From NCBI GenBank assembly GCA_963823345.1, contig CAWGLE010000004.1, forward strand, positions 513,166 through 577,165: DNA of 64,000 nt, read 5' to 3'. Shown piece after piece: positions 19,723 through 48,025 of this stretch. Origin of the DNA: Candidatus Sulfomarinibacteraceae bacterium (GTDB lineage: Bacteria > Acidobacteriota > Thermoanaerobaculia > Thermoanaerobaculales > Sulfomarinibacteraceae). Position 1 is the stretch's first letter. Each line of letters starts with the position of its first letter. Below the pieces are notes generated by a model. It was not told the origin of the DNA and searched no databases. It was given only the letters and a program-made list of their open reading frames with translations. Made by a program: the position numbers and the translations under genes.

Positions 19723-20057
19723 TGCACCCTCCTCCCGAACGGTCCCCGGACGCCCGACCGTTCGGGCGCCCACCACCGACAAGACATGGCCGCGGTGTCC
19801 CGACCGCGGGCCGAATACGCTGTACAAGGAATTCCTTGCCTGCAATATGAGACTTTGGTCACGAATTGGCAACCCGTGCTGAGAACAGGTTTCATCGAAC
19901 TGGTCGGAGAGCAGAATCCCATGCCTCCAACGTCGGCTCCGCTATGCTCGAAGTCCTCAGGATTTGGTTCCATTTCGGTGCGATTGGAGTCCGGCGGCGG
20001 TGGCCAGCCTTGACGATGGTCGGCCAGGGTTGTATTTTTGGAATCGGTAATTCCGAA

Positions 20058-21227: not shown

Positions 21228-23898
21228 AATTCCGGAGTGCCCGCCAAGGCGGCCCGCCGCTCATTCACCACTCCGGCACCTCGGCCCATCCCGGGAACGG
21301 ACCGACCTCGATCTTCCAGCCGGTAGAGGATTCCTCGTCCCGGACGACGCGGAGGTTTGTGAGGGTCTTGAGCTTGGCGATCAGCTCGTCGTGCGGCAGG
21401 GTGTGGAGCGGCGGCTTCGAGAGGTCGGGCATGGGCCAGACTCGAGAGGTATCGTCGATGCCCGACGACGACGAGCCAGGCGTTGTCGGGGGAGACGAAC
21501 TTGTAGCCGATCGCGCCCTCTGGCCGAGGAGGAGGTGAGGTGTTGTCCGTCCGATCCGGCCGACCTGGATCGTGCCGTCCGATTCGACCCGCGACCCAGA
21601 TCGTCGCCGTCGGGGCTGATCGAGGGATTGCCCGAAATAAGAAAATCAAGGTCTCGAGCGCCGTCGGTCCTCACGTCGAAGAGCTTTGTCGGCTCGGCAC
21701 CGGTTCATACCGCGAATCGGTGTCCCAGCAGGAGGGCCCTCGGCGGTCGGCGGTCATCGACATCGACGAGTGCCGCCGCTGGGGACCCGATGACTTCTTC
21801 GTACGTCCCGGCGTCGAGGTCCCATCGCAGCAGGCCGTTCGCACCGCTGTGTAAAGGCTGCTTTCGTCCACAAATGCGAGATGGACCGCCGCGTACCCCT
21901 CGTAGCCCTCCGGGTCCACGGGCTGTTCGAAGACCCGCACCTCGTCCGTGTCGAGGTCCCACACCCGAAGCGTCGCCTGGCCTTCCGATTGGGCGCTCGC
22001 CGCCGCCACCAGCCGCCCGCTCGGCGAGAAGCCGCCGGCGACCAGCGCTCGCTGGCAGGAAAACCGAAGAGATTCCGGGCCTCTCCACGGTCACCGAGAG
22101 CAGGAAGCTGCTGCGGCCGTACTCAGCGCCAGCACGTACCGAACGGTCGGGTCGACGGTCATTCATGTGTCCGACAGCTCCGATTCCGGTGGCAACATCA
22201 GGTCGACGATGTCGTCTGGGTGTTTCCGGGCACCGGCCAGAGCCGCACCCGGGTTGCCGGGTGATTCACCGAACAGTCGATGGCGACAAGGAAACGACCG
22301 TCACCGGTGAAGCCCTGCTCTACCAGCCCTTGATGACGATTGGGAGGGGGTCTCGGAGCGGCCACAACCCGTTCACTTTGTCGACGTCCGTCGCGCAATC
22401 CAGTCTCCGTGGGGTTGAAGCGCATGGCGAAGCTGGTGGTCTGGCGGAGCTGCAACGGTTGGCGTGGCGGATCGCCGCGAGGTCCCACAATGTCACGGGG
22501 TACCCGGATAACGAGTATTACGATGGCCCGACGCCCCGCGGGTCCGGGACGAGGCTATCGCTCGGACGCCCTCCGGCCGCCGCATTCGTTTACGGGGCAA
22601 CCAGGAGCCGACCGTCCAGGGACCACAGGATGATCTCGCCGCTGCTGTCGTCGCGAGAAGAATTCGCTCCGTCGCGCCCCAGATTTCGACGAACAACACC
22701 GTCTGACGAGTGGCGGCCGAGCAGCGTGTCGGACACGTCTTCGATGACCGGCAGAGGGCGGGAATATACGCCGTTCCCCTTGGAGTAGAGCCATGCATTC
22801 CCCCGCGGATCGAAGATGCTCGTGGACTGGTGCCGACGGCGCGAAAGTCGACCGTGCCGAGGTCTTCGGCCTCGCCGTCCGGCAGCTTCCACCGGACGAG
22901 CTTGAGCGGCCACGGCTCGCCGGCTGGGGGTGAGGATCGCGCGCCGACCTCAGCGAGGAGGTGCTGCTCGCCCACCTGCCACCACGCTCGGCCGCCGAGC
23001 TCGATCGTGGCGACGAGATCGCCCCGCGGCATCGACCACACCCGCACGCGGGTCTCGCTGTTGTGGCCGGTGACGAGAAAATCGTCACGGCTCCAACCAC
23101 ATTGGATCGGATTGTTGGCAGAAACCGCATGACCGCCGAGGACGATCGGACGGCCTCCGGCCTTCTCGTGGACCAGCACGTCCTGATTGACGATTCCCCG
23201 TCCCGCGAGCCACTGCCCGTCGGGGCTGAAGCAGGAGCCCGCGATCTGTCCCCGGGTGAAATGGCGCGGGTCGAGCACCCTGACCGGCGGTCCCGCCCAC
23301 AACGCCCGCACCGCAAACAGGCGCGCTTCACGCGAGTCTGCGAGCTCGAGGCTCGAGGTCGCGTAGGCGAGCGCCTCGGTGGGGTCCTTCTCGATCTGCA
23401 CCTGGGCCAGGGCGAGCAGCTTCGAGGCCTCGGCGCGGCGGGTCTCGAGGACGCTGCGGCGCCAGAAGGTGCCGACAAACGGCTGCCGATGACCAGGGCC
23501 AGCGCGATTGCTGCCGCTACCGCGATCCGGCGCCGCCGTCTCCGCCGCGTCGCGAGGGAGGTCATGGCGGCAGCGAAGGCCTCCTCGAGCTCGGTGAGGC
23601 CGCCCGGGTAGCGCTCCCGCCATACGGCAAACTCGCGGTAGGCGGAGCCGGTCCACAGCATGTCGTCGGTGCGGCCGTGCTCGTCCCAGGTCTTGCGCCG
23701 CCTGCCGCAGCTGGTCGCGCAGCTGGGCGGCGTCGGCGTCCTGGGTCTGCCAGCGCACGAGGCGCGGCCAGTTGGCGAGCAGCGACTCGTGGATGATTTC
23801 GACGCGGCGGGTGGGTTCCTGTTCGTCTTCGTGGATCTCGTACGAGGTCAGGAGCCGGGCGTCGATGAGTTCTCGCAGCACTTCTTCTGCGGCAGAGC

Positions 23899-23964
23899 GG
23901 GAGGGGATAAACCCCTCCCCTACGGCTTTCCTTGCGTTCGTAGGGGCGGGGTTTATCCCCGCCC
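23899..23964. repeat. REPIN type 2 embedded in paralogue A coding region
   Basis: GGGAGGGGATAAACCCCTCCCCTAC-ggctttccttgcgttc-GTAGGGGCGGGGTTTATCCCCGCCC. On the minus strand it is translated as ..AGINPAPTNARKAVGEGFIPS... Confidence 0.8.
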
Positions 23965-24993
23965 TGCGATGGTCCCCGTCAAAAATTGATAGCAACTCGT
24001 TCCATTCTCGGACCGCCCGGGTGCCTTCGGCGGTGACGAGGTTGCGGAAGAGCTCGCGGACGATGGGAATTCGTTCGGCACCGATGCGGTCGATGGTGGC
24101 TTCGGCGTGTTGGGCCAGCGCGCCGGCGACGCCGCCGATCTCCTGGTACGCTTCGCGGGTGAGGAGACCGCTCTCCTTGTCGCGCCGCTCCCACAGGCGC
24201 GCAGCCGCAAACGCCAGCAACGGCAGGGCGCCGCGCTCGCCCTCGACCTCGGCCAGCATCTCGTCCACCAACTCGTCGTCCTCGAAGCGGTAGCCGCACT
24301 GCAGCGGCGGGCTGGGACAGGGCGCGTCGGAGAGCGGCGCCGGTCGGTGGGTCGAGCAGCGTGAGGTCGGCGAAGACCGGCGCGAGGGCTTCGTGGTCGC
24401 GACACCGATCAGGAAGTCGTCCCGCATGCGACAGCAGCACGAAGCACGTCGGCCTCGAGCGCGAACGCGGCGAGCAGTGTCCGCGAACCTCTGCTGTATC
24501 GTCGGCGGAGTTCTGAGTGAACAGCTCCTCGAACTGATCGACGATCACCAGAGTGCTCGGTCGTCGCTTGCCGCCACCGCGCGACGACGTCGACCGCCAC
24601 GTCCGGTCGTCGCGGCCGCGAGCACGAGTCCATCGCCTCGGCGTCACCGGCCATCGCGGCGCCAACGCCCGTCCGCAGCGACGCTGACGGGTCGTTGCCG
24701 GGTGTGCAGATCGGACGGTGCCCCAGCCGGGCCGTGCGGTCGCAATCAGGCCTGCACGAAGGAACGAAGTCTTGCCTGCGCCCGGAGGCCCGACCAACCC
24801 GAGCATCCTCGGCGGCCCCTCGAGCTTGCGCCACATCTGCTCGACCTCGGCCTCGCGGCCGAAGAAGTACTCGGCATCAGCTTCGGTGAAGGATGCGAGA
24901 CCGGGGTAGGGGTGGAGGTCGTCGGCGCCCTCGACTCGGAGGGTCACGTCCTCGAGGGCGCGGGTGAGAGTGTGGGCGGAGTTGTATCGGTCT

Positions 24994-25797
24994 TCACGGT
25001 CCTTTCTTGACGGCCTTTTGGATCACCGCTGCCCACGGCGTGTCGGGGACTTTGGCAGGCTCGGATCGCACACCGTCCCACACGCTCTGGCGGGAGTCGA
25101 AGCTCTTGATGCCGTCGGGCTCGACCATCTCGGCGAGCACCACGCCCGCTGCGTAGACGTCGGCCCTGGCATCGAGCGTCTGCCCCGCGGCCTGCTCGGG
25201 CGACATGTAGGCGGGCGTGCCCGCGACCGTGCCACCGCCCTCGGTCTCCTGGCGGGCGAGGCCGAAGTCCATCACCACGACTCGTCCGGCGCGGGTGAGC
25301 ATGATGTTTTCAGGCTTGATGTCGCGGTGGATCAGGCCGGCCTTGTGGATGGCTTCGAGGCCCGCCAGGAACTGCGAGGCGATGTCCTGGGCTTCCTTGA
25401 GCTCGAGGGGGCCGCGCTCCTGCAGCACGCCGAGCAGCGTCGCCCCGTCGACGTACTCCATCGACACCAGCTCGCGGCCCTCGACCTCGATCAGGTCGAA
25501 GATCCGGCAGACGTTGGGCGACACCACCTCGCGCGCGGCACGCACCTCCTGGCGCAACAGCTCGAGGCGCCGCTCGGATTTGAAGAACTCGGGCCGCAGC
25601 GCCTTCAGCGCCACCTCGACCCGCAGCTTGAGGTCGAAGGCGTGCCACACCTCGCCCATCCCGCCGCGGCCCAGCATCTCGAGGATCTGGTAGCGCTCAC
25701 CCAGCACCTGGCCGGGCGCGAAGCCCTTCATCCCCTCCGGCAGGTCGAGGGTCTCGCCCTCGCCCTCGGTGCGGGTGGTGAGGTCGTGGTCAGTCAT
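24994..25797 (-). CDS. Stand-alone Hanks-type Ser/Thr kinase ORF (intact N-terminal remnant of paralogue A)
   Basis: 267 aa with GRGGMGEVW, VALK, HRDIKPEN, DFG and GTPAYMSPE. It terminates at TGA 24994-24996 after an extra base near 25001 relative to paralogue B. Confidence 0.6.
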   Translation of the reverse strand: MTDHDLTTRTEGEGETLDLPEGMKGFAPGQVLGERYQILEMLGRGGMGEVWHAFDLKLRVEVALKALRPEFFKSERRLELLRQEVRAAREVVSPNVCRIFDLIEVEGRELVSMEYVDGATLLGVLQERGPLELKEAQDIASQFLAGLEAIHKAGLIHRDIKPENIMLTRAGRVVVMDFGLARQETEGGGTVAGTPAYMSPEQAAGQTLDARADVYAAGVVLAEMVEPDGIKSFDSRQSVWDGVRSEPAKVPDTPWAAVIQKAVKKGP

Positions 25798-25831
25798 CGT
25801 ATACCCACACTCGCGACATGACTGGATCATG

Positions 25832-25879
25832 TGCAGGCGGGACGCCTGCACCACACACCCGGCAGCCGGGACGGCTGCC
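25832..25879. repeat. Two REP hairpins with 8-bp stem and GGA loop
   Basis: TGCAGGCG-gga-CGCCTGCA (25832-25850; also at 42080-42098) and GGCAGCCG-gga-CGGCTGCC (25861-25879). Confidence 0.75.
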
Positions 25880-25972
25880 CCACAACGGACTATCGGCCGT
25901 CTCGGTCGGGCACGTGCTCCACGGCCCAGGGCGCGGCCGTCGCGACAAAAACTCATCTGAGGTATCCTCGAC

Positions 25973-26412
25973 GTGGAGGCCCCGATCATGAACTCGAACG
26001 TTGGTCCGGCCGAGCGCATCACCGCAGTGCTGTCGGCTCGTCCGGAGATCCTCGAAGCGTACCTCTTCGGGTCCGGGCGCGAGGTGAGGGCCAGGCGCAC
26101 AGCGATATCGACATCGCTGTTTTCATCGATGAAGCGAAGGTCGAACCGGGCCCCTTCGGATACCGAGCAGAGCTGACATCGGCGCTGATGAGCGGCCTCG
26201 GCACCAACGCCGTCGATGTCGTGGTGCTCAACCGCGCGCCGCCGCTTCGTGTACCACCGGGTCCTGCGCGACGGCTGCGTCTGTGTTCACGCGACCTTCG
26301 TGCAACCACGGTTCGCGAGGGCAGGGCCCTCTCACGCCACTGCGATTTCGTGCCGCAGCTGGCGAAGATCGACGCCATACTAGGTGCTCGAGCGCCGTTC
26401 TCGGAGAGGTAG
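25973..26412 (+). pseudogene. mntA: MntA-type minimal nucleotidyltransferase (antitoxin), copy 1, frameshifted
   Basis: ..RITAVLSARPEILEAYLFGS.. (frame 2) then ..GEGQAHSDIDIAVFIDEAKVEPGPFGYRAELTSALMSGLGTNAVDVVVLN.. (frame 1). There is a 1-nt deletion near 26071-26080 relative to copy 2, plus a +1/-1 pair around 26245-26290. Confidence 0.65.
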
Positions 26413-26414
26413 TC

Positions 26415-26845
26415 GTGGGCCCGGGTGAAATCGACGTCCTGATCATACGTCGCCACCTGGCCGCTCTCCGCGAGTCGCTCCAGGTCCTCGCCGCTCGCAA
26501 TGAGGTCTCTCTCGAGGAACTCGACGCCGACACCGAGCTGCTGTGGGTCGTGGAACGCGGTCTCCAGCTCTGCGCACAAAACGCGCTCGACATCGCGACC
26601 CACATCGCGGCAAGCAGGGGCGGGACGTCCCGGACTACGCCAGCGCCATCGACGAGCTCGGGCGCCTCGACGTGCTCGACCATGATTTCGTACGCGAGTT
26701 TCGCAACGTTGCGGGCTTCCGGAACGTGCTGGTGCACGGCTATCTCGATGTGGACCTGGATGTCCTGTACACGCTCCTGCACGACCGTCTCGGAGACTTC
26801 GAGTCCTTTGCGGCCCGAATCGAGACCTACCTCGAAAACCTCTGA
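26415..26845 (+). pseudogene. hepT: HepT-type HEPN (DUF86) toxin, copy 1, frameshifted
   Basis: GTG 26415 lies 2 nt after the mntA stop. The N-terminal half is in frame 0 (..LWVVERGLQLCAQNALDIATHIAA..). The C-terminal half is in frame 2 (..DVPDYASAIDELGRLDVLDHDFVREFRNVAGFRNVLVHGYLDVD..; Rx4H motif). The shift is near 26605-26625. Confidence 0.65.
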
Positions 26846-29432
26846 GGCCCGCCTGTGCCCGCCAGGGTCGCCTGATCTCGGATGAGATCGCCCGAAGAAC
26901 AATCGTCTCCTCACGGCATCACCATGTCGGCACCGTTTCCCACCCGGGAAGGGATCGTGGGTCAGCTTCCATCCGGTGGAGGATTCCTCGTCGCGGACGA
27001 CGCGGAGGTTGGTGAGGGTCTTGAGTTTGGCAATGAGCTCCTCACGCGGCAGGGTGTGGAGCGGGGCCTTCGAGAGGTCGGGCATGGGCCAGAGGCGGAC
27101 TGTTCCATCATTACCCCCGGACGCGATCCATCGACCGAGGGGGTCGATTGCGAATGTCCACACCGTGCTCTCGTGACCGAGCAGAAGATGCGGTTCTTCT
27201 CCGGTCAGGGGACCAACGCGGATCTCGCCATCCCGGTCCCCGGTAACGGCAAGAGTCCCAGCTGGATCGATGCCAACAGCTGATATATTGTTCCCGAATC
27301 GTTCGAGGCTGGTTTTCGTCCCTGAGTCGAGATCGAGAAAGACGGCTTTTCCAGACAGAGGGTCCGACTTTTCATCTTCGATGACGAGCACCCGGCGCCC
27401 ATCGGCGCTCGCAGCAAACAACCCGACGCTCCCTTCGGGCTTATACAAAAGGTCACGTCGCCCACCCCGAATATCCCATTGCCACAGCCCCGACACACTT
27501 GTCGAAAGCAGACGGTCTCCTGTCGTGAATTGAAGGCAATCGGGTCGGGTTGGTTCTCCAACTTCCAGGACGGCCACTTCCTCACCTGACGGAACGTCCC
27601 AAACCCTGATCTTTTGTTCTGCAGGATCGAATCTTCCCCCTGCAGCGGCGGCCAAGCGGCCGTCGGCACTGAAGGCCACCCCCCATGTCTGACCCGTGAA
27701 ACCTTCGAGGTTGATGGAGAACCCGCCATCGGACTGCAGTAGCCGTGTGCCCGCCCCATTGGTGCCGGCCAGGATCTGCTCACCGTCTGGTGATACTGCA
27801 ATACCCGTCGTCCATGTGTTCAGTTCCAACAATATGCGCCCCGGCGGAGGAGGGTCCCCTTCGAGTGGCCACAGCCTGACGGTGCCGTCCATAGAACTCG
27901 AAGCGAGCCAACTGCCGTCGGGTGCGAATGCGAGACCGGGCACTTCTAGATCTTGTTGCCGTATGACGATGGGAGACTGCCTCGACAGCGGCCATATTGC
28001 CAACCCGGCCAGGTCAGCGGTCGCCAACCAGTCGCCTCGGGGGCTGAATGCACACTGTCGAGTTGCATGTTGTCGCCGCGGAGGAGAACCAGCGGTTCGG
28101 CGTCGATCGGCAAATCCGTTGACCACACGCGATACTTCAAATCGGGTCCCCACCGGGCCACCCGTCTGCCGGAGTCGTCCCATCTCCGCCACCCCCAACC
28201 GGTTCCACCAAGATTGAAGCGGCGAAGGAATCGGGGGGAATCTCCTGATACGGCCCAGACCGATGAAACAAAATTGCCGTCTTCTCGAGCAAGCGCTTCG
28301 AGGCGGGACCCGTCAATCGAAAACTCGAGGGAACGAATTCCTAGTGGCCCCTTGAATACAAATGGTGGAAGGACACCGCGTGGATCCCACAGTCGGATCT
28401 CTCCCCTCGACGTCCGCTGTGGCGACAAAACGCCCAAGGGGATCCACGGCAACGCCCACGGCAGTGCGACCGACCCTGCCCAAACGCCGCGCCGGAGAGA
28501 GGGCGTGGTCGCCCACCTCGGCGATGAAAACATCGCCATCAGCAACAACGCCGATCCAGGCCCCATTCTGAGGGTCGAGATCGAAGTGAGTCAGCCATTT
28601 CCCGTCTTGATCCCGTTTGACCACGAACTCCAGCGTGCCGAGGCGCTCAACTGAACCGTCGTGACCCAGGGTATCGACAACGCCGAGGTTGTTTTCCTCG
28701 ACCAGTAGAACGTGGCGATCTCTGTTCGTATCCTCCGCGATGCCTCTCGTGTACGCGGGTTCCTTGTAACGGATGTCTGCCAGCCTCGTCTCCTCTATTA
28801 CTGACCATAGGCCGTGCTCCCAGGTCCCGTCGGCACCGGACCCATAGGTTACGAAGTGCCCGGTGTTGCTGATACGCGATACGGCTCCGGCCGACGCGGA
28901 AGCCTCTGATTCAAGGTATCTGCTGGACCCGTCGGCAGAAATGACGCTCAATCGGGGACTCCCTTCGGGGACACCTCTCCTTTGTTGAACCAGCCACCTG
29001 CCGTCGGGGCTGAATGGGCAGGCCCAGACCTGGTCATCGGAGGCAACAAGCGCTGTAGGTCCTTTCCACAGCGCTTCGAGGGCAAGCAGGCGCGCACTTG
29101 GACCGTCGGCAAGTTCCAGGCTTGCGATCGCGTGGGCGACCGCTGCTGACGGGTACGACTCCAGTTCCAGCTGTCCCAGCGACACGAGGTTTGCCGCTTC
29201 GGCGCGGCGCTCCTGGAGAGCGCTCCGTTGCCACAAGATAGTCGTTGCCGCAGTTACCACTGCGGCGATCACCAGGGCCGCCGCCACTGCGGCGCGGCGT
29301 CTACTTCGTCGGCGGCCTGAAAGGGCGACCATGGCACCGGCGAACGCTTCCTCGAGTTCGGTCAATCCTCCCGGATATCGATCCCGCCACACGGCGAACT
29401 CTCGGTACGCCGAACCGGTCCAAAGCAGATCG

Positions 29433-31559: not shown

Positions 31560-31585
31560 GGATGACTCGAGAGTCGATTCCCAGT

Positions 31586-31686
31586 GTAGGCGGGTCCTTC
31601 AGGGCCCGCCACCACCGGCGTCGAGTCATTTCTACCGCATTTGACTCCGGGTGGATCCGTGGGCGCGCCCTGAAGGACGCGCCTAC
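31586..31686. repeat. REPIN type 3 between paralogues B and C
   Basis: GTAGGCGGGTCCttcagGGCCCGCC ... GGGCGCGCCctgaagGACGCGCCTAC (outward GTAG/CTAC heads). Confidence 0.7.
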
Positions 31687-31722
31687 ATTTCGTTGAGTCG
31701 CCTCGGGCGTTCGGGCGGAAAC

Positions 31723-31750
31723 TCCGAAATCCGAAATCCGAAATCCGAAA
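31723..31750. repeat. Tandem 7-mer array (TCCGAAA)4
   Basis: Four perfect units, 7 nt from the stop codon of paralogue C (31758-31760, minus strand). Confidence 0.8.
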
Positions 31751-31757
31751 TCGCGAC

Positions 31758-34700: not shown

Positions 34701-34919
34701 CTTCTCCCACAGACGTGCGGCAGCGAACGCCAGTAGCGGCAACGCGCCGCGTTCGCCTTCGACCTCGGCCAGCATCTCCTCGATCAGCTCATCGTCTTCG
34801 AAGCGGTATCCGCACTTTGTCGCGGGTTGCACGCTGCGCGGCGCAGATCGCCCCCGGTCGGCGGGTCGAGCACCGTGAGTTCTGGAAGATCGGATCGCAG
34901 CGAATCGTGGGCATTGCAT
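31758..34919 (-). CDS. Intact 1053-aa ORF of paralogue C: distal NTPase/helical region - TM - WD40 - conserved tail
   Basis: Homology begins at ..KCGYRFEDDELIEEMLAEVEGERGALPLLAFAAARLWEKRD.. and runs uninterrupted to ..THDPFPGWETVPTW*. The first ~35 codons are out-of-frame junk, so the true start and expression are unclear. Confidence 0.45.
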   Translation of the reverse strand: MQCPRFAAIRSSRTHGARPADRGRSAPRSVQPATKCGYRFEDDELIEEMLAEVEGERGALPLLAFAAARLWEKRDRETGLLTRQAYQEIGGVGGALAQHAEATIDHIGSERIPIVRELFRNLVTAEGTRAVREWGELLSIFSDSHSKSPEEVLRELIDARLLTSYEIHEDEHEPTRRVEIIHESLLANWPRLVRWQTQDQEGAQLRDELRQAARSWDEHGRHDDRLWTGTAYREFELWRERYPGGLTSTEEAYATAMTSFATRRKRRRRLVMAAALVVLAGVASILGGMWAKSERETRRAEANELLALGQQELDSYPSAAVAYAITSLELADSPSARYLAQAALWGGPTALVINDESSWQAEFTPDGRALVQSGDGTGNLRLIKADGTSELLQHQHESRRINIRVGLETGVFSSFGFFDKSVLPLLALWSVADGRMLSEASYDGPARLLGQAVNATQQRMVYLVLEGKIGSIDILGFGGARKRLGTPDLGFKTSRDWIRRTDLERRTGRWLGAVVDEDVLVIDIGEHSLSEPRRLGRHVEPVRKVLFDPLGRFFATIAEDGRIRLWDNAGDSPPILLSAPPGAILDITADGSLLEASVFEEGEVTSWIWLLDTNPPRFLRPFPVGDDGIGWWGLNRVGWQIARSGSDLKIRLWPMAAPADAEPVFLLRGDVDVLWGLSFHPNGNWLASADKAGAALWPLARPYPAVIRRHEKEVMDLLFGPEGRWLVSSSMDDTVRFWPLEGDVLPPGRILLKDPGKQMYDLARTPDGEQLLAGTAWSGARLFSLSGEEFQTVPDIGPVSFWGASISPDGRLCAGVLDVKTPEIRILVWDRTSGEEVAVLYPEGRRVFCLQFTNDGHLLSSSEFGLRKWDLVTGESELLYEGNIFLFDASSDGKQAIVIEGYVLEASAPKRAVFLDFETGETRTLETHGTRVYAVALDQKNKIVATGDTDGVVRVGPITGEEPHLLLGHENGVTALAFDPLGRWVASGGKDKTIRLWPMPDLSKPPLHTLPREDLIAKLKTLTNLRVVRDEESSTGWKLTHDPFPGWETVPTW

Positions 34920-36304
34920 GCGGCTACGAAGTCATCGCGCATTGAAAGCAGCACGTGGATGTCGCTCTCGAGAACGGATCGCCGCAGCAGTTCTGCGAAC
35001 CTCCGCTGTTCTTCGATACCGTTCTGAGTGAACAGCTCTTCGAACTGATCGACGACTACGAGAGCATGTGTGTCCGTTCGCGCCCAGCTGGCCGAGTACC
35101 TGAACGGCGACGTCGGCATCGCCGAAACGAGGAAGCAGCTCGACCGCGTCCGGATCTCCAGCCGTTTCGCCGGCCACCACCCCGGCGAGCGAGGAGGTGG
35201 CTGCGTTTCCGGGAGTCGATCGGATGATCCCCCAGTCCGGCGGAGCGTGGGCCACGCAGCCCGGCCGCGAGAAACGAGGATTTTCCTGCCCCCGAGGGCC
35301 CGATAATTGCGAGCATTCGCGGCGGCCCCTCGAGCTTGCGCCACATCTGCTCGACCTCGGCCTCGCGGCCGAAGAAGTACTCGGCGTCTGCCTCCGTGAA
35401 TGATGCGAGCCCGGGATAAGGGTGGAGGTCGTCGGCGCCTTCGACGCGGAGGGTCACGTCTTCGAGGGCGCGCGTCGAGGGTGTGGGCGGAGTTGAAGCG
35501 ACCCTCGCGGTCTTCCTGACGGCCTGTTGGATGACCTGCGCCCACGGGGTGTCCGGGATCTTTGCGGCTCGGAGCGCACGCCTTCCCAGACGCTCTGCCG
35601 GGAGTCGAAGCTCTTGATTCCGTCGGGGCTCACCATCTTCGGCCAGCACCACGCCGCTGCGTAGACGTCTGCCCGCGCGTCGAGCGTCTGTCCCGCCCCT
35701 GTTCGGCGACATGTAGGCCGGAGTGCCGGACACCGGCCTCCGCCCTCGGTTTCCTGACGGGCGAGGCCGAAGTCGATCACGACGACCCGACCGGCCCGGG
35801 TGAGCATGATGTTTTCCGGCTTGATGTCGCGGTGGATCAGGCCGGCCTTGTGGATGGCTTCGAGCCCGGCGAGGAACTGCGAAGCGATGTCCTGGGCTTC
35901 TTTGAGTTCGAGCGGCGCGCGCTCCTGGAGCACTCAAGCAACGTCGCGCCGTCGACATACTCCATCGACACCAGCTCACGGCCTTCGACCTCGATCAGAT
36001 CGAAGATGCCGGCAGACGTTGGGAGAGACCACCTCACGAGCGGCGCGGACTTCCTGCCGCAACAGTTCCAGCCGCCTCTCGGACTTGAAGAACTCGGGCC
36101 GCAATGCCTTCAGCGCCACCTCGACCCGCAGCTTCAGGTCGAAGGCGTGCCACACCTCGCCCATCCCGCCACGTCCGAGCATCTCGAGGATCTGATAGCG
36201 GTCACCCAGCACCTGTCCGCGGTGCGAAGCCCTTCATCCCCTCCGGCATGTCGAGGGTCTCGCCCTCACGCTCGGTGCGGGTGGTGGAGATCGTGGTCAG
36301 TCAT
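31758..36304 (-). pseudogene. Paralogue C of kinase - STAND NTPase - TM - WD40 protein (N-terminal kinase/NTPase part decayed)
   Basis: ATG 36304 (MTDHDL..). An extra C gives a stop after 12 codons. Kinase and NTPase pieces lie in ORFs 35976-36212, 35454-35933, 35056-35979 and 34784-35545, with several shifts and a few replacements (E->D, G->A, M->I). It lacks the REPIN insert (..LLSIFSDSHSKSPEEVL..). Confidence 0.65.
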
Positions 36305-36482
36305 TGGTTATCCGAGTCGGAAGTGACCGGTTTGGTGGACGGGTCACTCCGAGGCCCGCCACCGCCCACCCGGCGGGCCGGGACGGCTGCCCCACAACGG
36401 ACACATTGGCCACTTTGTCGGGCACGCGCTCCGCGGCCCCGGCGCTGTCGTCGCGACAGGAACTATCTGAGGTATCCTCGAC

Positions 36483-36923
36483 ATGGAGGCCCCGTTCATG
36501 GATCCGAAAGATCTGCTGGCTGGACGCATCACCGCGGTGCTGTCGGCTCGTCCGGAGATTCTCGAGGCGTATCTCTTCGGATCCCACGCTCGGGGTGAGG
36601 GCCAGGCGCACAGCGATATCGACATCGCTGTGTTCATCGATGAAGCACGAGGTCGGACCGGGCCCCTTCGGATACCGAGCGGAACTGACCTCCGCGCTGA
36701 TGAGCGGTCTCGGCACCAACGCCGTCGATGTCGTGGTGCTCAATACCGCGCCGCCTCTCCTGTACCACCGGGTTCTGCGCGACGGCTCCCGTCTGTACTC
36801 TCGCGACCTTCGCGCGACGACGGTTCGCGAGGGCCGGGCCCTCTCGCGCCACTGCGATTCGTGCCGCAGCTCGCGAAGATCGACGCCATACTAGGTGCTC
36901 GAGCGCCGTTCTCGGAGAGGTAG
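36483..36923 (+). pseudogene. mntA: MntA-type nucleotidyltransferase, copy 2, middle third out of frame
   Basis: ..YLFGSHARGEGQAHSDIDIAVFIDEA (frame 0), then a +1 shift near 36645-36655. ..PGPFGYRAELTSALMSGLGTNAVDVVVLNTAPPLLYHRVLRDGSRLYSRDL..ALSRHCD is in frame 1, then a -1 shift near 36858 returns to ..FVPQLAKIDAILGARAPFSER*. Confidence 0.65.
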
Positions 36924-36925
36924 CC

Positions 36926-37357
36926 GTGGGCCCGGGTGAGATCGACGCCCTGATCATTCGGCGGCACCTGGCCGCTCTCCGCGAGTCGCTCCAGGTACTC
37001 GCCGCTCGCAGCGACGTCTCTCTCGAGGAACTCAACGCCGACACCGAACTGCTGTGGGTTGTTGAGCGCGGTCTCCAACTCTGCGCACAAAACGCGCTCG
37101 ACATCGCGACGCACATTGCAGCCGGCCGGGGGCGCGATGTCCGGACTACGCCAGCGCCATCGACGAGCTCGGACGCCTCGGCGTGCTCGACCGATGAGTT
37201 CGTACACGAGTTTCGCAACGTCGCCGGTTTCCGGAACGTGCTGGTGCACGGCTATCTCGATGTGGACCTGGATGTCCTGTACACGCTCCTGCACGACCGT
37301 CTCGGAGACTTCGAGTCCTTTGCGGCCCGAATCGAGACCCACCTCGAAAACCTCTGA
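36926..37357 (+). CDS. hepT: HepT-type HEPN (DUF86) toxin, copy 2; open frame but with a 19-codon recoded patch
   Basis: GTG 36926. ..EFRNVAGFRNVLVHGYLDVDLDVLYTLL.. (Rx4H). Between ~37140 and ~37197 a -1/+1 pair turns the ancestral VPDYASAIDELGRLGVLD into VRTTPAPSTSSDASACSTD. Confidence 0.6.
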   Translation: MGPGEIDALIIRRHLAALRESLQVLAARSDVSLEELNADTELLWVVERGLQLCAQNALDIATHIAAGRGRDVRTTPAPSTSSDASACSTDEFVHEFRNVAGFRNVLVHGYLDVDLDVLYTLLHDRLGDFESFAARIETHLENL

Positions 37358-37430
37358 GCCTCGGTTGTGCCCGCCAGGGTCGCCTGATCTCGGATGAGAT
37401 CGCCCGAAGCGTAAGCGTCTCCTCATGACA

Positions 37431-40400
37431 TCACCACGTCGGCACCGTTTCCCACCCCGGGAAGGGATCATGGGTGAGCTTCCACCCAGTGGTGGACTCT
37501 TCGTCGCGGACGACGCGGAGGTTGGTGAGGGTTTTGAGCTTGGCGATGAGATCCTCACGCGGCAGGGTGTGGAGCGGCGGCTTCGAGAGGTCGGGCATAG
37601 GCCAGAGGCGGATCTCGGTTCCCGACGACGAGGCGATCCAACGATCCAGAGGGTCGACAGATACGGCGTAGATCTCGTCCGGATTTCCAAGCAGAAGATG
37701 AGGTTCCTCGCCAGTTATGGGTCCGACGCGGATCACGCCGTTCGAGTCACCCGTTACAGCGACCGTGCCCGATGGATCTATCGCGACCGCTGTCACGCGG
37801 TCCCCATGGGACTTGAGCGTATTTGTCAATCCGGTCTCGAGGTCGAGCGACACGGCTTTACCTAAAAGGGCCAAGGACGCCCTCTCGTTCCCAACTTCGG
37901 ACAGAAGCGCGTGGGTACTGTCCACGCCAACCGCAAACTTCTCCACAGGTTTTTCGAACAGGGCTTCCGTGACACCGGTTTCAAAATCCCAGCCGAACAA
38001 ACCCGATGAGTGCGAATACAGAACGAGCCCCCCCTCCGTGAATTGGAGGAAAGGAGTGGCATTGGTTTTGGCCAATTCGAGCGCTGCTATCTCTTCGGAC
38101 GAGGAAAGGTCCCACACTCGTACAACGGTTTCCTCATAATTCCCTTTCAAACCGGTGGCTGCAGCGAATCGGCCGTCGGGGCTGAACGCCGCTCCCCATA
38201 CAATTTTGGCGACGCCTGGAAGATCAACAGGTTTCTCATTGCTGAGTGAGAGCAGTTTTGTGCCGGTGGCGTGGGTCCCGAGAAGGAGGTGTTCCCCGTC
38301 AGGGGAAGCAGCGAGACCGTACGGATAAGCCCCCGCCTCGAACACAGTCCGGGCCGCCGGCACGTTATCGCCCTCCAAATCCCACACGCGAACGGCGCCG
38401 GTTGAGTCGACACCGCTCGTCGCGAGCCACCTGCCCTCGGGTCCGAATACCAAATTCATGGCTCGCTCCTCGTACCGATTGATCACCGCTGGGTAGGGTC
38501 AGGTCACTGGCCAGAGAGTCAGGCCGTTTGTAAACGAGGTGGCCAACCACCCGCCATTCGGGTGAACTCTCACGCGTCTCGGGGTGCTGGCGTCACCTCG
38601 TTGCAAGATTGTGGGTTCGGCGTCAGCCGGCGCCCGCAACCACCACAGCCGGGTTTTCGGGTCTGGATTGAGGATGCTGACGATCTGACCTTCAACTGGA
38701 TTGAGCGTCCAGCCCGCGGTTCCGCTGCTCTTCCCAAGATCGATGTGGCGAAGCAAGGTCGGTTCGCGGTCCCGAAGAGACCAGATCCACGATTCGACCA
38801 TGTCGTTTTTCCGTGTGATAACCTCGAACAACGATCCGTCGCCACTGATACTGAGTCGAATGTCGCCGCGTGGCCCCCCTTTGATCTCCCGTGGCGGCGA
38901 CTCCCCATCCAGGTCTCGCAGACGAATCCGCCCGTCTTCGGAGAGTGAAACGACGAATCGACCCTGGGGGTCGCATTGGAGGCGCACGACTGGAGTATCG
39001 AGAAAATCGAGATGTCGCGGCTCTGAGAGTTCGTGGTCTCCGACCTCGATCACGTAGACATTTTGACCGGACCCAACGGCAAACCATTTTCCTTTCGGGG
39101 CGCTTTGGCAAAGAACTGTCGAACGCGAGTCAAATGGGAGAGCGCCGAGGCGTTCGGAGCTGCCGTCGAATCCTAAGGCATCGATGAAGAAACGGTCGTC
39201 CTCTATCGACATCAGCAATACGCGGGCTCGCCCCAGGTCGAAATAGATTCTCCGAGTATTTTCTGGAATCCCGGATCGGCCGGTGGAAAGCAGTTTTTTT
39301 TCAGGAGCCGACCAGAGCGCCCATAGTTCGGCGTTGCCCCAGGGACTTGTCGCGAAAACTCCTGATTCCGTATCCATCGTCAGACCAACCCAGTCATCGT
39401 GCACGTCCTCTAACAGTTCATCGGTTCCTTCAGCACCGATAACATGCAGTTGGTAAGGGGCCGCATCCGTTGCCTGCACGAGCCACTGACCGTCAGGGGT
39501 GAACTCGATTTCCCACGACGGAATTTCGTTGACAACAAACGCTGTCGGGCCTTTCCAGAGCGCCTTGAGTGCGAGGAGCCGAGCCTCTGAACTGTCCGCC
39601 AGTTCGAGACTGGCCGTCGCGTATGCCACTGCGGCTGACGGATACGACTCGAGTTCTACCTGCGCCTGGGAAAGAAGGGTGGCGGCCTCGGCGCGGAGAG
39701 TTTCGCGGACGCTTCGCTGCCAGAATGTGCCGACGACCGCGAGGCCGGCGAGGAGGACAGCGAACCCTGCGCTCACCGCTATTCGACGCCTGCGCCGACG
39801 TCGCCCGGCGAGGGAGGTCATGGCGTTCCCGAAATCTCTTTCGATCTCGGTCAGGCCACCGGGATAGCTTTCGCGCCACACGGCGAACTCTCGGTAAGCC
39901 GAACCGGTCCAAAGCAGATCGTCAGATCGGTCGTGCTCGCTCCACGTCTTCGCTGCCTGCCGGAGTTGATCGCGGAGCTGGGCCGCATCGGCGTCCTGGG
40001 TCTGCCAGCGCACCAGCCGCGGCCAGTTGGCGAGCAGAGATTCGTGGATGATTTCTACTCTACGGGTTGGTTCGTGTTCGTCTTCGTGGATTTCGTATGA
40101 GGTCAGGAGTCGGGCGTCGATGAGTTCGCGAAGGACCTCTTCTGCGGCAGTGCGGGAGGGGATGAACCCCTCCCCTGCGGCTTTCCCTGTCTTCGTAGGG
40201 GCGGGGTTTATCCCCGCCCTGGGGTAGCTCCCACCGAAAATCGAAAGGAGTTCATTCCATTCACGGACGGCGCGGGTGCCTTCGGCGGTGATGAGGTTTC
40301 GGAAGAGTTCTCTGACGATGGGGATCCTCTCGACACCGGTGCGATCGATTGTTGCCTCGGCGTGCTGCGCCAATGCCCCGCCGACGCCGCCGATGTCGTG

Positions 40401-42045
40401 GTACGCCTTTCGGGTGAGAAGCCCGTTCTCCTTGTCGCGTCGTTCCCAAAGCCTCGCCGCCGCAAAGGCAAGCAGCGGGAGTGCTCCGCGTTCGCCTTCG
40501 ACCTCGGCGAGCATCTCGTCGACCAGATCGTCGTCCTCGAAGCGGTAACCGCACTGCAGAGCAGGTTGGGTCAGGGCGCGCCGAAGCGGTGCACCCTCCG
40601 GTGGGCCGAGCATCGTCATGTCGGCGAGCGCCGGACGCAGTGGCTTGTTCTGGTGGCAGCGGAAGAGATAGTCATCGCGCATGCTCAGCAGCACGACGAT
40701 GTCGGCCTCGAGAACGAGCGCGTTCAAGAGTTCTGCGATCGTGCTCTGGATCTCTGGCGGGTTGAGGGTGAACAGCTCCTCGAACTGATCGATGATCAAT
40801 AGTGCGTGGTCATGCTTGCGACGCCAACGAGCGACAAGGTCCACCGCGACGTCCAGCTCGTGAAAGCGTAGCAAGAGTTTTACGCCATCAGAATCTCCCG
40901 CCGTCTCGGTTGCGAAGGCTCCGGCAAGGGCGTTGACGGGTGCGTTGCCGGGGGTGCATCGAACAATTCCCCAGCCTGGCGGAGCGTGCGGCGCCAGCCC
41001 CGCCCCCAAGAAGGACGTTTTTCCGGCTCCCGAAGGGCCCGCGATTGCGAGCATTCGCGGCGGCCCTTCGAGCTTGCGCCACATCTGCTCGACCTCGGCC
41101 TCGCGGCCGAAGAAGTACTCGGCGTCTGATTCGGTGAAGGAGGCGAGGCCGGGGTAGGGGTGGAGGTCGTCGGCGCCTTCGACTCTGAGGGTGACGTCTT
41201 CGAGCGCTCTGGTCAGGGTGTGGGCGGAGTTGTAGCGGCCCTCGCGGTCTCTTTTTACCGCCTGTTTAATGACTGGCGCCCATGGCGTGTCGGGGACCTT
41301 TGCGGGCTCCGAGCGCACGCCTTCCCAGACGCTCTGCCGGGAGTCAAAACTCTTGATGCCTTCGGGACTCACCATCTCGGCCAACACCACGCCCGCTGCG
41401 TAAACGTCGGCCCGCGCATCGAGGGTCTGGCCTGCAGCCTGCTCCGGCGACATGTAGGCGGGTGTGCCGGCGACAGTCCCGCCGCCCTCGGTCTCCTGGC
41501 GGGCGAGGCCGAAGTCCATCACCACCACCCGCCCGGCACGGGTGAGCATGATGTTTTCGGGTTTGATGTCGCGGTGGATGAGGCCAGCCTTGTGGATCGC
41601 TTCGAGGCCGGCGAGGAACTGCGAGGCGATGTCCTGCGCTTCCTTGAGCTCGAGCGGACCGCGCTCCTGGAGCACGCCGAGAAGCGTCGCGCCGTCGACG
41701 TACTCCATCGACACCAGCTCGCGGCCCTCGACTTCGATCAGATCGAAGATCCGGCAGACGTTGGGCGAGACCACCTCACGAGCGGCGCGGACTTCCTGCC
41801 GCAACAGTTCCAACCGCCTCTCGGACTTGAAGAACTCGGGCCGCAATGCCTTCAGCGCCACCTCGACCCGCAGCTTCGAGGTCGAAGGCGTGCCACACCT
41901 CGCCCATCCCGCCGCGGCCGAGCATCTCCAGCACCTGATAGCGCTCACCGAGCACCTGACCGGGGGCGAAGCCCTTCATCCCCTCCGGCATGTCGAGGGT
42001 TTTGCCCTCGTCCTCGGTGCCTGTGGGGAGGTCGCGGTCAGTCAT
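37431..42045 (-). pseudogene. Paralogue D of kinase - STAND NTPase - TM - WD40 protein (least damaged: one +1 frameshift, one in-frame TGA)
   Basis: ATG 42045 (MTDRDLPTGTEDEGKTLDMPEG..). An extra C at 41877 splits the kinase between the Gly loop and VALK. A 1149-aa ORF (38499-41948) follows, then TGA 38499-38501 where B and C have Arg. The same frame continues for 356 codons to ..GWETVPTW* (37431). Confidence 0.6.
40154..40219. repeat. REPIN type 2 embedded in paralogue D coding region
   Basis: GGGAGGGGATGAACCCCTCCCCTGC-ggctttccctgtcttc-GTAGGGGCGGGGTTTATCCCCGCCC, translated ..AGINPAPTKTGKAAGEGFIPS.. within the intact 1149-aa ORF. Confidence 0.8.
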
Positions 42046-42079
42046 CGCGTGCCCTCAGATCCTGACGTATCAGTACGTG

Positions 42080-42098
42080 TGCAGGCGGGACGCCTGCA
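42080..42098. repeat. REP hairpin TGCAGGCG-gga-CGCCTGCA
   Basis: Identical to 25832-25850. It lies between the FHA regulator gene and the start of paralogue D. Confidence 0.7.
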
Positions 42099-42196
42099 CC
42101 ACAAGCGGGCCTCCGTTCTTGTGGTACGCGCGTCTGGTGGGTCGGGGAGGAGTGTCGGCGACGAGGTGTCGCTCGGTGGGGCCCGGTCCCCGCTGT

Positions 42197-42928
42197 TCAT
42201 GAGACCGTGTGCTCGGTCTGGGTGGGTTCGCCGTCGATGAGGTAGCGGAAACGAGCGACGCTGCGGCCGATCCAGATCTCGTCGCCGTCGGTCAGCACAG
42301 CTGGTTGGTGGAGGCGTTGCCCGTTGAGGAAGGTGCCGTTCTTGCTTCCCAGGTCTTCGACGGTCGCGGTGGTGCCGTTGACAAAGACTCTGGCGTGGCA
42401 GCGGGAGACCTCGGTGCGGTCGATGCACACGGTGGCGTCAGAGGTGCGCCCGATGACGTTGGAGCCCTGGGAGAGGGGATACTCGGTTCCGTTCCCCTGG
42501 AGCCGGAGCGGGAGGGTGACTTCGCGGACCGGACGGATCGCAGCCTCCACCGGCGTCACTGCGGCCACCAGCCGGTAGCCCTTGCGCGGGATGTTCTCGA
42601 TGTAGAGGGGGTTTCGGGCATCGTCGCCGAGGGCGGCGCGGATCTCGGCGATGACCTGGGTGAGGGCGTGGTCGGACACGAACTCGGTGCGCCACACGGC
42701 GTCGATGAGGTGGCGCTTGGCGGCCAGCTTGCCGGCCTCCATCGCGAGACATACCAGCACGTCCATCGCCCGCGGGCGGAGCTGGAGGACAGTGCCGTCG
42801 CGCGAGATCCGGTCGAGCGTCGGCTCCACCAACCAGTCGCCGAGATGGAACGACCGTCTGGGGGCGCCCGCCATGTCTCCTGTCGGTTGCATTTTGAGAG
42901 AAGTATAGGGCTTAAGGAGTGAGACCAC
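42197..42928 (-). CDS. Transcriptional regulator: CadC/OmpR-type winged helix + C-terminal FHA domain
   Basis: ..FHLGDWLVEPTLDRISRDGTVLQLRPRAMDVLVCL..IENIPRKGYRLVA (Trans_reg_C-like). Then ..NVIGRTSDATVCIDRTEVSRCHARVFVNGTTATVEDLGSKNGTFLNGQRL..GDEIWIGRSVARF (FHA). Start at GTG 42928 or ATG 42892. Confidence 0.8.
   Translation of the reverse strand: MVSLLKPYTSLKMQPTGDMAGAPRRSFHLGDWLVEPTLDRISRDGTVLQLRPRAMDVLVCLAMEAGKLAAKRHLIDAVWRTEFVSDHALTQVIAEIRAALGDDARNPLYIENIPRKGYRLVAAVTPVEAAIRPVREVTLPLRLQGNGTEYPLSQGSNVIGRTSDATVCIDRTEVSRCHARVFVNGTTATVEDLGSKNGTFLNGQRLHQPAVLTDGDEIWIGRSVARFRYLIDGEPTQTEHTVS

Positions 42929-46016: not shown

Positions 46017-48023
<2,007 letters not shown>

Positions 48024-48025
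<2 letters not shown>

Follow-up and report, generated by a model that had tools for sequence, protein, structure and literature searches.

A tandem array of candidate receptor kinases with an inserted nSTAND1 NTPase behind a wHTH-FHA regulator gene in a Sulfomarinibacteraceae bacterium

What does a bacterium do with four consecutive genes that each join a Ser/Thr kinase to a STAND NTPase and a long run of WD40 repeats, and that stand behind a single gene for a transcription factor with a winged helix (wHTH) and an FHA domain? We examined this question in 64,000 nucleotides (nt) of contig CAWGLE010000004.1 from a Candidatus Sulfomarinibacteraceae bacterium (Acidobacteriota; assembly GCA_963823345.1, positions 513,166 to 577,165 of the forward strand), referred to below as the window and numbered from its first letter; related loci and proteins carry L and P numbers. 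A preliminary description of the window, made from the sequence alone, had reported four minus-strand loci with one shared architecture, here termed copies A to D, and inspection of the sequence recovered all four as a tandem with conserved ends. The reading that we prefer, and to which we give an even chance, is that they are locally amplified single-pass receptor Ser/Thr kinases with an inserted nSTAND1 domain, that they would feed one FHA transcription factor, and that the frameshifts which interrupt them are mostly consensus errors. Direct observation supplies the domains, a conserved transmembrane (TM) helix and a conserved gene neighbourhood.

Architecture and topology of the kinase paralogues

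The conserved ATGACTGAC start of each copy lies at 25797 (A), 31559 (B), 36304 (C) and 42045 (D), and the stop codons behind the conserved peptide PFPGWETVPTW end at 21265 (A), 26919 (B), 31758 (C) and 37431 (D), in exact agreement with the coordinates first proposed. Each copy comprises, in order, a Pkinase domain, nSTAND1 (PF20703), a single TM helix, about 700 residues of WD40 repeats and a conserved 55-residue tail, as follows:

37431..42045, minus strand: copy D, the least damaged (Pfam and frameshift-aware alignment); kinase 41940-41181, nSTAND1 41162-39804, Arg run and TM 39803-39720, linker and WD40 39719-37599, tail 37598-37434
31758..36304, minus strand: copy C (Pfam and frameshift-aware alignment); kinase 36197-35443, nSTAND1 35424-34134, Arg run and TM 34133-34050, linker and WD40 34049-31926, tail 31925-31761
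26919..31559, minus strand: copy B (Pfam and frameshift-aware alignment); kinase 31454-30696, nSTAND1 30677-29315, Arg run and TM 29314-29231, linker and WD40 29230-27086, tail 27085-26922
21265..25797, minus strand: copy A, heavily fragmented and supported by alignment; kinase 25692-24933, nSTAND1 24914-23548, Arg run and TM 23547-23462, linker and WD40-like 23461-21433, tail 21432-21268

Pfam searches, with gathering cut-offs of 27.1 bits for nSTAND1, 31.7 for Pkinase and 20.7 for FHA, backed all the domain calls of the preliminary description (Hanks kinase, nSTAND-type STAND NTPase, WD40, wHTH and FHA). Copy D matches nSTAND1 over profile positions 1-378 of 379 (E = 1.1e-91, 308.7 bits), Pkinase at 1.1e-37 and WD40 at 7.8e-19; the corresponding nSTAND1 values are 1.5e-74 (252 bits) for copy B, which also matches Pkinase at 1.7e-43, 3.4e-47 (162 bits) for copy C, with WD40 at 1.2e-40, and 8.8e-40 (138 bits) for copy A. 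The Pkinase scores of 130-149 bits place the kinases among the Hanks-type enzymes (PF00069), and a full-length match above the gathering score does the same for nSTAND1. The motifs quoted earlier were found again: GRGGMGEVW, VALK, HRDIKPEN, DFG and GTPAYMSPE occur in all four reconstructed copies and are nearly invariant in 69-73 relatives, and the PYPGLASFTE...GPSGAGKTSF Walker A region, a DQFEE Walker B and an Arg run followed by a hydrophobic helix are all present. A 1101-residue database call on the same contig (P0001) is 100% identical to copy D. Searches of NCBIfam with the kinase, the regulator and the outer-membrane protein described below gave no match above a family cut-off. A promoter and terminator scan of 36.2-43.4 kb returned matches at or below shuffle expectation and did not inform the operon structure.

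The architecture is shared well beyond this genome. A kinase query retrieved 4,287 database proteins at E <= 1e-20, some of them possibly kinase-only matches; the best 120 of the 4,287 are mostly 1,450-1,600 residues long and combine Pkinase, nSTAND1 and WD40, those that are named being from Acidobacteriota or Holophagae. Members are typically intact at about 1,500 residues, and 115 of the best 120 are full length and include the TM helix. In all 115, one strongly hydrophobic 19-mer lies near residue 740, with a mean Kyte-Doolittle value of at least 2.0 in 113 of them. On average 7 Arg or Lys fall within the 15 residues that precede it and about 4 behind it, where acidic residues are also found. 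The segment, at 39803-39720 in copy D, is a run of six to eight Arg with some 21 hydrophobic residues behind it.

The argument for an N-in/C-out topology by charge bias is strengthened by these relatives, as the Arg run precedes the TM helix in 115/115. It is also supported by the STAND-less kinases encoded beside more distant wHTH-FHA relatives, 23 of 24 of which are kinase–TM–propeller or kinase–TM–tetratricopeptide-repeat (TPR) receptor kinases with the TM helix about 25 residues past the kinase domain. Hydropathy, charge bias and this analogy together suggest that the propellers and tail are periplasmic and that the kinase and NTPase are cytoplasmic. The family in the window looks like an ordinary receptor kinase that has acquired a STAND NTPase between its kinase domain and its membrane helix.

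Structural models agree with this division. An AlphaFold2 (AF2) model of copy C from the TM helix to the end (31761-34163; predicted local distance difference test, pLDDT, 92.4; predicted template-modelling score, pTM, 0.89) consists of a 59-residue helix, two short capping helices and about 59 strands that make up two seven-bladed propellers, with one helix and two strands in the tail; the membrane segment is modelled as one long helix packed into neither domain. For this model Foldseek ranked tandem double propellers highest, among them Aip1, 2ymu (a Nostoc WD40 protein) and Apaf-1 (3sfz). For nSTAND1, AF2 predicted (pLDDT 82) a five-stranded parallel P-loop core, a helical domain and a winged helix with a beta-hairpin wing, and the model ends in the long helix of the Arg run and TM segment. 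It matched Orc1/Cdc6, PAB2304, CED-4 (8jo0) and the NB-ARC of plant NLRs in Foldseek, which by itself cannot tell STAND from Orc/Cdc6 AAA+ proteins. Walker A GPSGAGK(T/S)SF, Walker B hhhhDQFEE (h, hydrophobic) and an SMRDDF motif are invariant or nearly so in relatives, and the modelled succession of a P-loop core with Walker A and B, a helical domain and a winged-helix domain is that expected of the NOD of a STAND NTPase. A PDB sequence search with nSTAND1, the TM helix and the first propeller as the query returned no solved structure.

The wHTH-FHA regulator and its kinase partners

Upstream of copy D on the same strand lies the regulator:

42197..42874, minus strand: wHTH-FHA transcription factor gene, intact, 225 residues (Trans_reg_C and FHA by Pfam)

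Both domains named in the preliminary description stand (Trans_reg_C 2.2e-14; FHA 1.5e-19, 70.6 bits), whereas its start codon does not. The gene most likely begins at the ATG at 42874 rather than at the GTG at 42928, since nearly all of 120 homologues are 225-231 residues long and lack the 18 residues that the GTG would add. A PDB profile search with the regulator family matched the CadC DNA-binding domain (1.7e-29) and the EmbR FHA domain (2fez; 1.4e-15). The residues predicted to bind phospho-threonine, G160, R161, S175, R176, H178, N197, G198 and T199, are invariant in 21 sequences, and with its Gly-Arg, Ser-x-x-His and Asn-Gly signatures all kept the domain would qualify as a phospho-threonine reader; a C-terminal T236-x-T238-E is likewise invariant (21/21). 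No BTAD was matched by Pfam in the regulator, in which only about 25 residues separate the wHTH from the FHA domain. Membership of the EmbR/SARP-FHA family was rejected because this 225-residue protein has no BTAD, and a CadC/ToxR-type one-component regulator because the FHA domain occupies the C-terminus and no hydrophobic segment is visible. By analogy, the protein may nevertheless work like EmbR from outside the EmbR family. The regulator query retrieved 1,363 proteins, the best 120 of which are 63-96% identical, and the regulator is far more conserved than the kinases.

The preliminary description had proposed that lack of co-occurrence of regulator and kinase beyond this genome would count against a link between the two; the co-occurrence persists far beyond it. 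The order uvrB–isochorismatase–wHTH-FHA–kinase array is found in 8/8 close loci (the window, L002, L003, L004, L085, L086, L088 and L089), which hold one to four kinase-nSTAND1-WD40 genes and have variable toxin-antitoxin (TA) genes before and after the wHTH-FHA gene. The TA types differ by genome and include PIN-MazE, PIN-Phd, MntA-HepT and AbiEii. The locus adjoins uvrB in species whose wHTH-FHA proteins are 68-96% identical. Across the GTDB species set, 573 stretches, almost all from Acidobacteriota, encode relatives of the regulator, and we surveyed the best 80 of these loci (regulators 35-60% identical), 77 of which had downstream sequence. A Ser/Thr kinase gene lies directly downstream on the same strand in 34 of the 77, mostly across gaps of 42-390 nt; another 6 have a divergent kinase gene, 17 a kinase gene elsewhere within 10 kb and 20 none. 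Only 2 of the 34 downstream kinases contain nSTAND1. Ten STAND-less neighbours were scanned and combine the kinase with PD40/WD40-like or TPR domains, or have no recognisable C-terminal domain, and several of the GTDB regulator–kinase pairs are also followed by a gene for a CarboxypepD_reg outer-membrane protein. In one protein, P0104, Trans_reg_C lies between kinase and nSTAND1 within a single polypeptide that also carries WD40. The regulator–kinase pair is a widespread acidobacterial module of the EmbR/PknH type.

One short-read contig, L090 (ena:ERZ27227323:k141_1192084), carries uvrB–isochorismatase–wHTH-FHA and ends after the TA pair behind the regulator. Kinase arrays of this kind may break short-read assemblies and have gone unnoticed for that reason, and the end of L090 would fit.

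Reading frames and evolution of the array

Frames were called by frameshift-aware protein-to-DNA alignment of an intact 1,537-residue homologue (P0003) to each locus. This revealed that no copy is a single open reading frame in this assembly. Copy D has one +1 frameshift at about 41874 and one in-frame stop:

38499..38501, minus strand: in-frame TGA in the WD40 region of copy D; CGA (Arg) in the L004 orthologue and Arg also in copies B and C; a single C-to-T change

As the orthologue and paralogues encode Arg, selenocysteine or programmed read-through at this codon was dismissed. Copy B has about six frame changes (at 30368/30324, 29657, 28402, 28055 and 26946), and copy C about 14 private single-base indels between 36219 and 34830, 12 of them in the kinase domain (35250-36219), while its C-terminal 1057 residues (31761-34931) form one open frame. 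Events called in the first 30 residues and the pair 33454/33396 in copy C are probably alignment artefacts, the latter being discounted because frame 31761-34931 is open throughout. In copy A the frame changes at least 10 times, with about 25 changes by the alignment estimate, and the aligned frame also contains stops. The wHTH-FHA, DUF4143 and outer-membrane protein genes and all flanking genes examined are intact.

Most of the frameshifts probably reflect errors in the consensus of a long-read metagenome assembly, at a place where the region varies in structure, because the ratio of non-synonymous to synonymous divergence (dN/dS) of the kinase domain is 0.03-0.07 for all six copy pairs, A and C included, and because the indels are private. 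Each affects one base where the other copies and two relatives show no variation, and many sit next to small clusters of mismatches. The MntA/HepT genes within 21.2-42.1 kb are broken as well. Sister contigs of the same ENA assemblies contain genes split in the same way, and in L003 even uvrB and tamA are in pieces. The "contig_N" naming and contig sizes in related ENA assemblies (ERZ25039514, ERZ25039603), the nearest proxy for the contig of the window, suggest that these are long-read metagenome assemblies. As a possible cause we favour low effective coverage of a strain-variable region. Repeat-induced mis-assembly was set aside, as paralogues that are only 74-87% identical in nt are too divergent to confuse long reads. 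The locus is a warning that long-read metagenome contigs can appear rich in pseudogenes precisely in variable arrays of this kind. In L087 (ena:ERZ25039514:contig_28936), positions 2-19637 hold a four-gene kinase-nSTAND1-WD40 array that ends at a CarboxypepD_reg outer-membrane protein gene and has two intact copies, one in two parts and one in six pieces beside that gene, a gradient that may be either a recurring biological pattern or a recurring assembly problem.

How the array arose is visible in self-comparison of the DNA. A 10.5-kb duplicated unit pairs two segments at 82.8% identity: 23982-27282 runs from the N-terminal half of A across a TA module into the tail of B, and 34498-37792 likewise from that of C into the tail of D, again across a TA module. 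Among copies, the kinase-NTPase halves are 74-87% identical and the last 170-330 nt 80-84%, whereas the propeller regions have no detectable DNA similarity between copies, and each paralogue bears a different propeller pair; the sensor half of copy A is the most divergent (dN 0.54-0.59 to the other copies). Values of dS between copies are 0.5-0.8 in the kinase and 0.3-0.5 in the tail, against more than 1.5 in the propellers, where dS is saturated between paralogues. The low dS at both ends indicates that these parts, the kinase-NTPase halves and the tails, are kept alike by concerted evolution while the sensor cassettes between them are old and divergent, which makes the locus a clear case of this process acting on constant signalling modules. 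Between copy D and its L004 orthologue, dN/dS is 0.03 in the kinase, 0.10 in nSTAND1, 0.27 in the WD40 region and 0.04 in the tail; the sensors are therefore less constrained than the kinase.

A small palindromic element also lies in three of the copies:

40158..40215 (copy D), 29670-29727 (copy B), 23903-23960 (copy A) and 11860-11934 (intergenic): palindromic element resembling repetitive extragenic palindromes or miniature inverted-repeat transposable elements (REP/MITE-like); absent from copy C

It consists of two inverted GGGGATAAACCCCGCCCC motifs, and the motif occurs 8 times against 0.09 expected. In A, B and D the element lies in frame within nSTAND1 and is translated (...RAGINPAPT...GEGFIPSR...); in the AF2 model it falls in a loop at residues 322-341 with pLDDT below 50, the sole low-confidence internal segment. 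The same loop in homologues carries no insert (SDSRSESP), half an element or a full element, an arrangement reminiscent of the Rickettsia palindromic elements inside genes.

Two other repeats were noted. The heptamer GGATTTC forms perfect tandem arrays of 4-5 copies at 45841-45877, 45977-46011, 48024-48058, 48324-48359 and 31719-31753, as inverted pairs flanking uvrB with one more array in the gap between C and B (14 matches against 0 expected), and such arrays also lie just upstream of uvrB in L002, L003, L004 and L086. A 170-nt direct repeat (78% identity) occupies 1415-1581 and 10260-10431, in intergenic or gene-end positions.

Neighbouring genes, alternative readings and known systems

The genes around and between the copies are the following:

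16735..19872, minus strand: outer-membrane protein of TonB-dependent-receptor type (OMP_b-brl_4 7.6e-40, CarboxypepD_reg 2.7e-19, Plug 6.6e-5)
19866..21227, plus strand: AAA_14 and DUF4143 ATPase (DUF4143 4.6e-32, AAA_14 6e-20; PADLOC candidate family PDC-S01 3.3e-55)
25973..26882, plus strand: second MntA/HepT module, between B and A, in the 10.5-kb duplicated unit (Pfam matches weak and partial)
36483..37354, plus strand: MntA/HepT module, between D and C (Polbeta 1.9e-10, HepT-like 1.9e-17 by Pfam)
43.4-44.6 kb: two PIN genes (Pfam scan)

CarboxypepD_reg outer-membrane protein genes follow or alternate with kinase-nSTAND1 genes in L001, L002, L003, L085, L086 and L087, and orders of kinase (K) and outer-membrane protein (OMP) genes such as K-K-OMP, K-OMP-K and OMP-K-OMP-K-OMP are found in 6 of the 7 relatives with enough sequence. 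The protein in the window is 26-33% identical to those of L001-L003. No SusD-like gene or glycoside hydrolase gene was found in the window.

Pfam confirmed the MntA/HepT, PIN and DUF4143 neighbours reported earlier. Two AAA_14/DUF4143 genes are present, and the flanks are housekeeping genes (PEPCK, aminotransferases, uvrB, tamA/tamB and the dcw cluster). The DUF4143 gene is missing at the corresponding position in L001-L003 and L085-L087, while L004 has one between two kinase genes. As the TA and DUF4143 genes differ in type and position between genomes, they look like mobile passengers in a recombination-prone hotspot. Compared with an intact L002 copy (92.6% nt identity), residues 49-120 of MntA at 36.5 kb are in another frame, and both genes of the 26-kb module shift frame once. 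The MntA frame 36483-36923 is open by chance, and annotators would call from it a full-length, partly nonsensical protein.

Elsewhere in the window, a 234-residue open frame at 45312-46013 (plus strand) has no Pfam match and overlaps the start of uvrB (45917-48022). Relatives have an unannotated gene of 174-264 residues in this position, and in L002 it is called together with UvrB as one fused product of 908 residues; the frame could represent either a small conserved gene or an extension of the UvrB N-terminus. At 13735-15078 (plus strand), a gene with a domain resembling bacterial archaeo-eukaryotic release factors (baeRF_family10, 4.4e-31) adjoins a cysteine desulfurase-like gene and a DUF4143 ATPase gene.

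In the mechanism that we propose for the array, each propeller pair would recognise a different periplasmic ligand, and ligand binding would cluster the receptors. The nSTAND1 modules would then oligomerise in an NTP-dependent manner, and the kinase domains, drawn close to one another, would trans-autophosphorylate. The FHA domain of the single wHTH-FHA protein would read the resulting phospho-threonines, and the protein may itself be phosphorylated on its invariant C-terminal TxTE, after which its CadC-type winged helix would alter transcription. Its likely targets would be the genes of the locus and, in addition, the TonB-dependent-type outer-membrane protein genes interspersed with kinase genes in relatives. 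Tentatively, and with more doubt than belief, we take this one step further and suggest that the kinases are true transmembrane STAND receptors, each functionally paired with a TonB-dependent-type outer-membrane protein. Ligand binding by the double propeller outside the cytoplasm would pass through the single helix into NTP-gated oligomerisation of the NOD inside, a threshold switch for a Hanks kinase that signals to one dedicated FHA factor.

Several observations weigh against the preferred reading of amplified receptor kinases with mostly erroneous frameshifts. In L001, kinase pairs occur with no wHTH-FHA gene in the 5 kb available upstream, so many paralogues lie apart from the regulator, and among the distant wHTH-FHA relatives only about half have a kinase next to them. 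Diversifying selection on the propellers was sought against the L004 orthologue, and WD40 dN/dS was 0.15-0.38 per segment of 100 codons, below 1. STAND and NLR proteins are understood as cytoplasmic switches with the repeat sensor directly on the NTPase, and a helix between sensor and NOD departs from this accepted mechanism, in which the sensor contacts the NTPase directly. Pfam detected neither STN nor any other signalling domain on the outer-membrane protein, whose link to the kinases is purely positional. Real decay could also explain why about 50 indels fall in 21 kb while the flanks, about 43 kb, show none. A genuine truncated 382-residue WD40 remnant in L086, from another project, and the TGA in copy D, which is a substitution and not an indel, point in that direction as well. 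Were the frameshifts real, birth-and-death turnover of a fast-evolving family would have left all four copies, or A and C at least, as pseudogenes, and only the wHTH-FHA gene and paralogues elsewhere would be functional. That the damage is confined to 21.2-42.1 kb, rises from D to A and has a counterpart in the gradient of L087 (two intact, one split and one shattered beside the outer-membrane protein gene) speaks for such a graveyard. Nevertheless, even A and C keep a kinase dN/dS of 0.03-0.07, copy C combines 12 indels in 1 kb with only about 0.01 of extra dN, a ratio typical of read errors and not of decay, and the private position of the indels next to mismatch clusters, the look of the related ENA assemblies with their fragmented uvrB and tamA, and the L004 orthologue of D (84% nt identity), which is broken at four different sites, all +1, point the same way. 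Real decay is possible, for copy A especially, but as an account of the array we consider it unlikely.

The divergence of the sensor halves among paralogues whose signalling halves are homogenised would also suit an NLR-like anti-phage or conflict system, in which STAND-WD40 proteins sense invader molecules, the kinase triggers defence and the locus is a defence island, as the preliminary description had suggested. nSTAND1 was defined in predicted counter-invader systems with Ser/Thr kinase and FHA among their N-terminal or effector domains (PMC8195603); MntA/HepT, PIN and AbiEii modules and DUF4143/PDC-S01 ATPases cluster at the locus; and kinase-based defences exist, with PADLOC matches of PD-T4-6 and MADS6 to the kinase domain. 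We judge this reading improbable, as the TM helix, present in 115/115 relatives, is predicted to part the sensor from the cytoplasm, and the sensor therefore could not see intracellular phage proteins, while the sole conserved partner with an output function is a transcription factor and not a toxic effector. The site next to uvrB is fixed across species, the TA genes differ in type and position from genome to genome, PADLOC is silent on the NTPase and sensor except for one WD40 repeat match, STAND-less receptor kinases hold the same place beside wHTH-FHA relatives, and WD40 dN/dS stays below 1. The defence-island framing finds no support: what varies at this site are the TA and DUF4143 genes, its constant partners are outer-membrane protein genes, and PADLOC sees a generic kinase. 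The PADLOC kinase matches cover residues 34-266 only, and assignments of the locus to PD-T4-6, MADS or BREX PglW, which would rest on this generic domain, were rejected. A variant that reconciles a periplasmic sensor with conflict is surveillance for envelope breach. TonB-dependent-type transporters are classical entry ports for phages and bacteriocins, and the propellers might watch the adjacent transporters while the kinase and FHA factor shut down or swap the outer-membrane protein under attack. Kinase and outer-membrane protein genes alternate as though duplicated pairwise, propellers and outer-membrane proteins are both very divergent between units, the sensor is predicted to be periplasmic and nSTAND1 has conflict-system ancestry; yet the basis is positional only and would suit plain substrate sensing equally, four kinase genes share one outer-membrane protein gene in the window and no interaction domain was identified, making this very unlikely.

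Returning to the receptor-kinase reading, the component families are all known, and their wiring is undescribed in the literature searched: that search (subscription journals outside its scope) returned no description of the kinase–STAND–TM–WD40 architecture, the wHTH-FHA partner or the alternation with outer-membrane protein genes. If the reading is right, a large conserved family with a membrane helix between NTPase and sensor would show that a STAND switch can be driven from outside the cell; if the further suggestion of true transmembrane STAND receptors holds too, the arrays would represent previously unrecognised trans-envelope signalling with multiple sensors, for nutrients or for threats that arrive through such transporters. 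To our knowledge, signalling in soil Acidobacteriota is almost unstudied, and a three-part circuit of outer-membrane transporter, receptor kinase-STAND and FHA transcription factor would give it a testable model.

Among known systems, the STAND proteins offer parallels in domain order. Apaf-1 and CED-4 are both among the structural matches, and in Apaf-1 a STAND NTPase is likewise followed by two tandem WD40 propellers as the sensor, but Apaf-1 is soluble, its propellers touch the NOD and it recruits caspases through CARD, whereas the window proteins have a membrane helix in between and a kinase as the output. Avs and bNACHT likewise are STAND NTPases of bacteria that carry a repeat sensor and an output domain at the N-terminus; the window proteins differ in a predicted extracytoplasmic sensor, an N-terminal kinase and the absence of a toxic effector, and they matched no PADLOC Avs or NACHT model, with Pfam NACHT at 17 bits, under its cut-off. 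The nSTAND1-centred predicted conflict systems of Kaur, Iyer, Burroughs and Aravind (2021, eLife; PMC8195603) share the PF20703 NTPase, the plan of N-terminal enzyme, central STAND and C-terminal ligand-binding module, and Ser/Thr kinase and FHA as associated domains, but are described around FGS/C-type-lectin sensors and effector-associated domains. The passages that a term search retrieved from this paper and a second one mention no TM helix between NTPase and sensor, WD40 propellers, wHTH-FHA partner or TonB-dependent-type neighbours.

Closest in layout, as a functional analogy only and with no sequence relationship, are the hybrid two-component sensors (HTCS) of Bacteroides, in which a periplasmic sensor of about 700-800 residues with two predicted seven-bladed propellers is encoded beside SusC-type transporters (PMC3243724). 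The array would share with them a sensor, a membrane helix, cytoplasmic signalling domains, TonB-dependent neighbours and transcriptional control, but the output in the window would run through a Ser/Thr kinase, a STAND NTPase and a separate FHA regulator. Reg_prop, YYY, histidine kinase, receiver and AraC domains had no Pfam match in the window proteins or the relatives scanned, which sets them apart from HTCS proteins. PknD-type kinases and the acidobacterial kinase-PD40/TPR proteins share with the window proteins a cytoplasmic Hanks kinase, one TM helix and an extracytoplasmic propeller (predicted in the window), and the kinase-PD40/TPR type holds the same site downstream of wHTH-FHA relatives in 32 GTDB loci. 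In the PknD type the TM helix follows about 25 residues after the kinase, while in the window a complete nSTAND1 lies between the two and the sensor consists of two WD40 propellers and the conserved tail. A further precedent is the PknH–EmbR relationship of Mycobacterium tuberculosis, in which a receptor Hanks kinase acts with an OmpR-type wHTH/FHA regulator (PMC4601284, PMC9239209). As there, a membrane receptor Ser/Thr kinase is genetically paired with a regulator that has an OmpR/CadC-class winged helix and a C-terminal FHA domain. The window regulator differs in having 225 residues, no BTAD and a wHTH closest to CadC/ToxR, and the window kinase in bearing a 450-residue STAND NTPase and a double WD40 propeller, with one regulator at the head of several paralogues. 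By analogy, we infer that the overall logic of the array would be that of EmbR and PknH with a STAND switch added.

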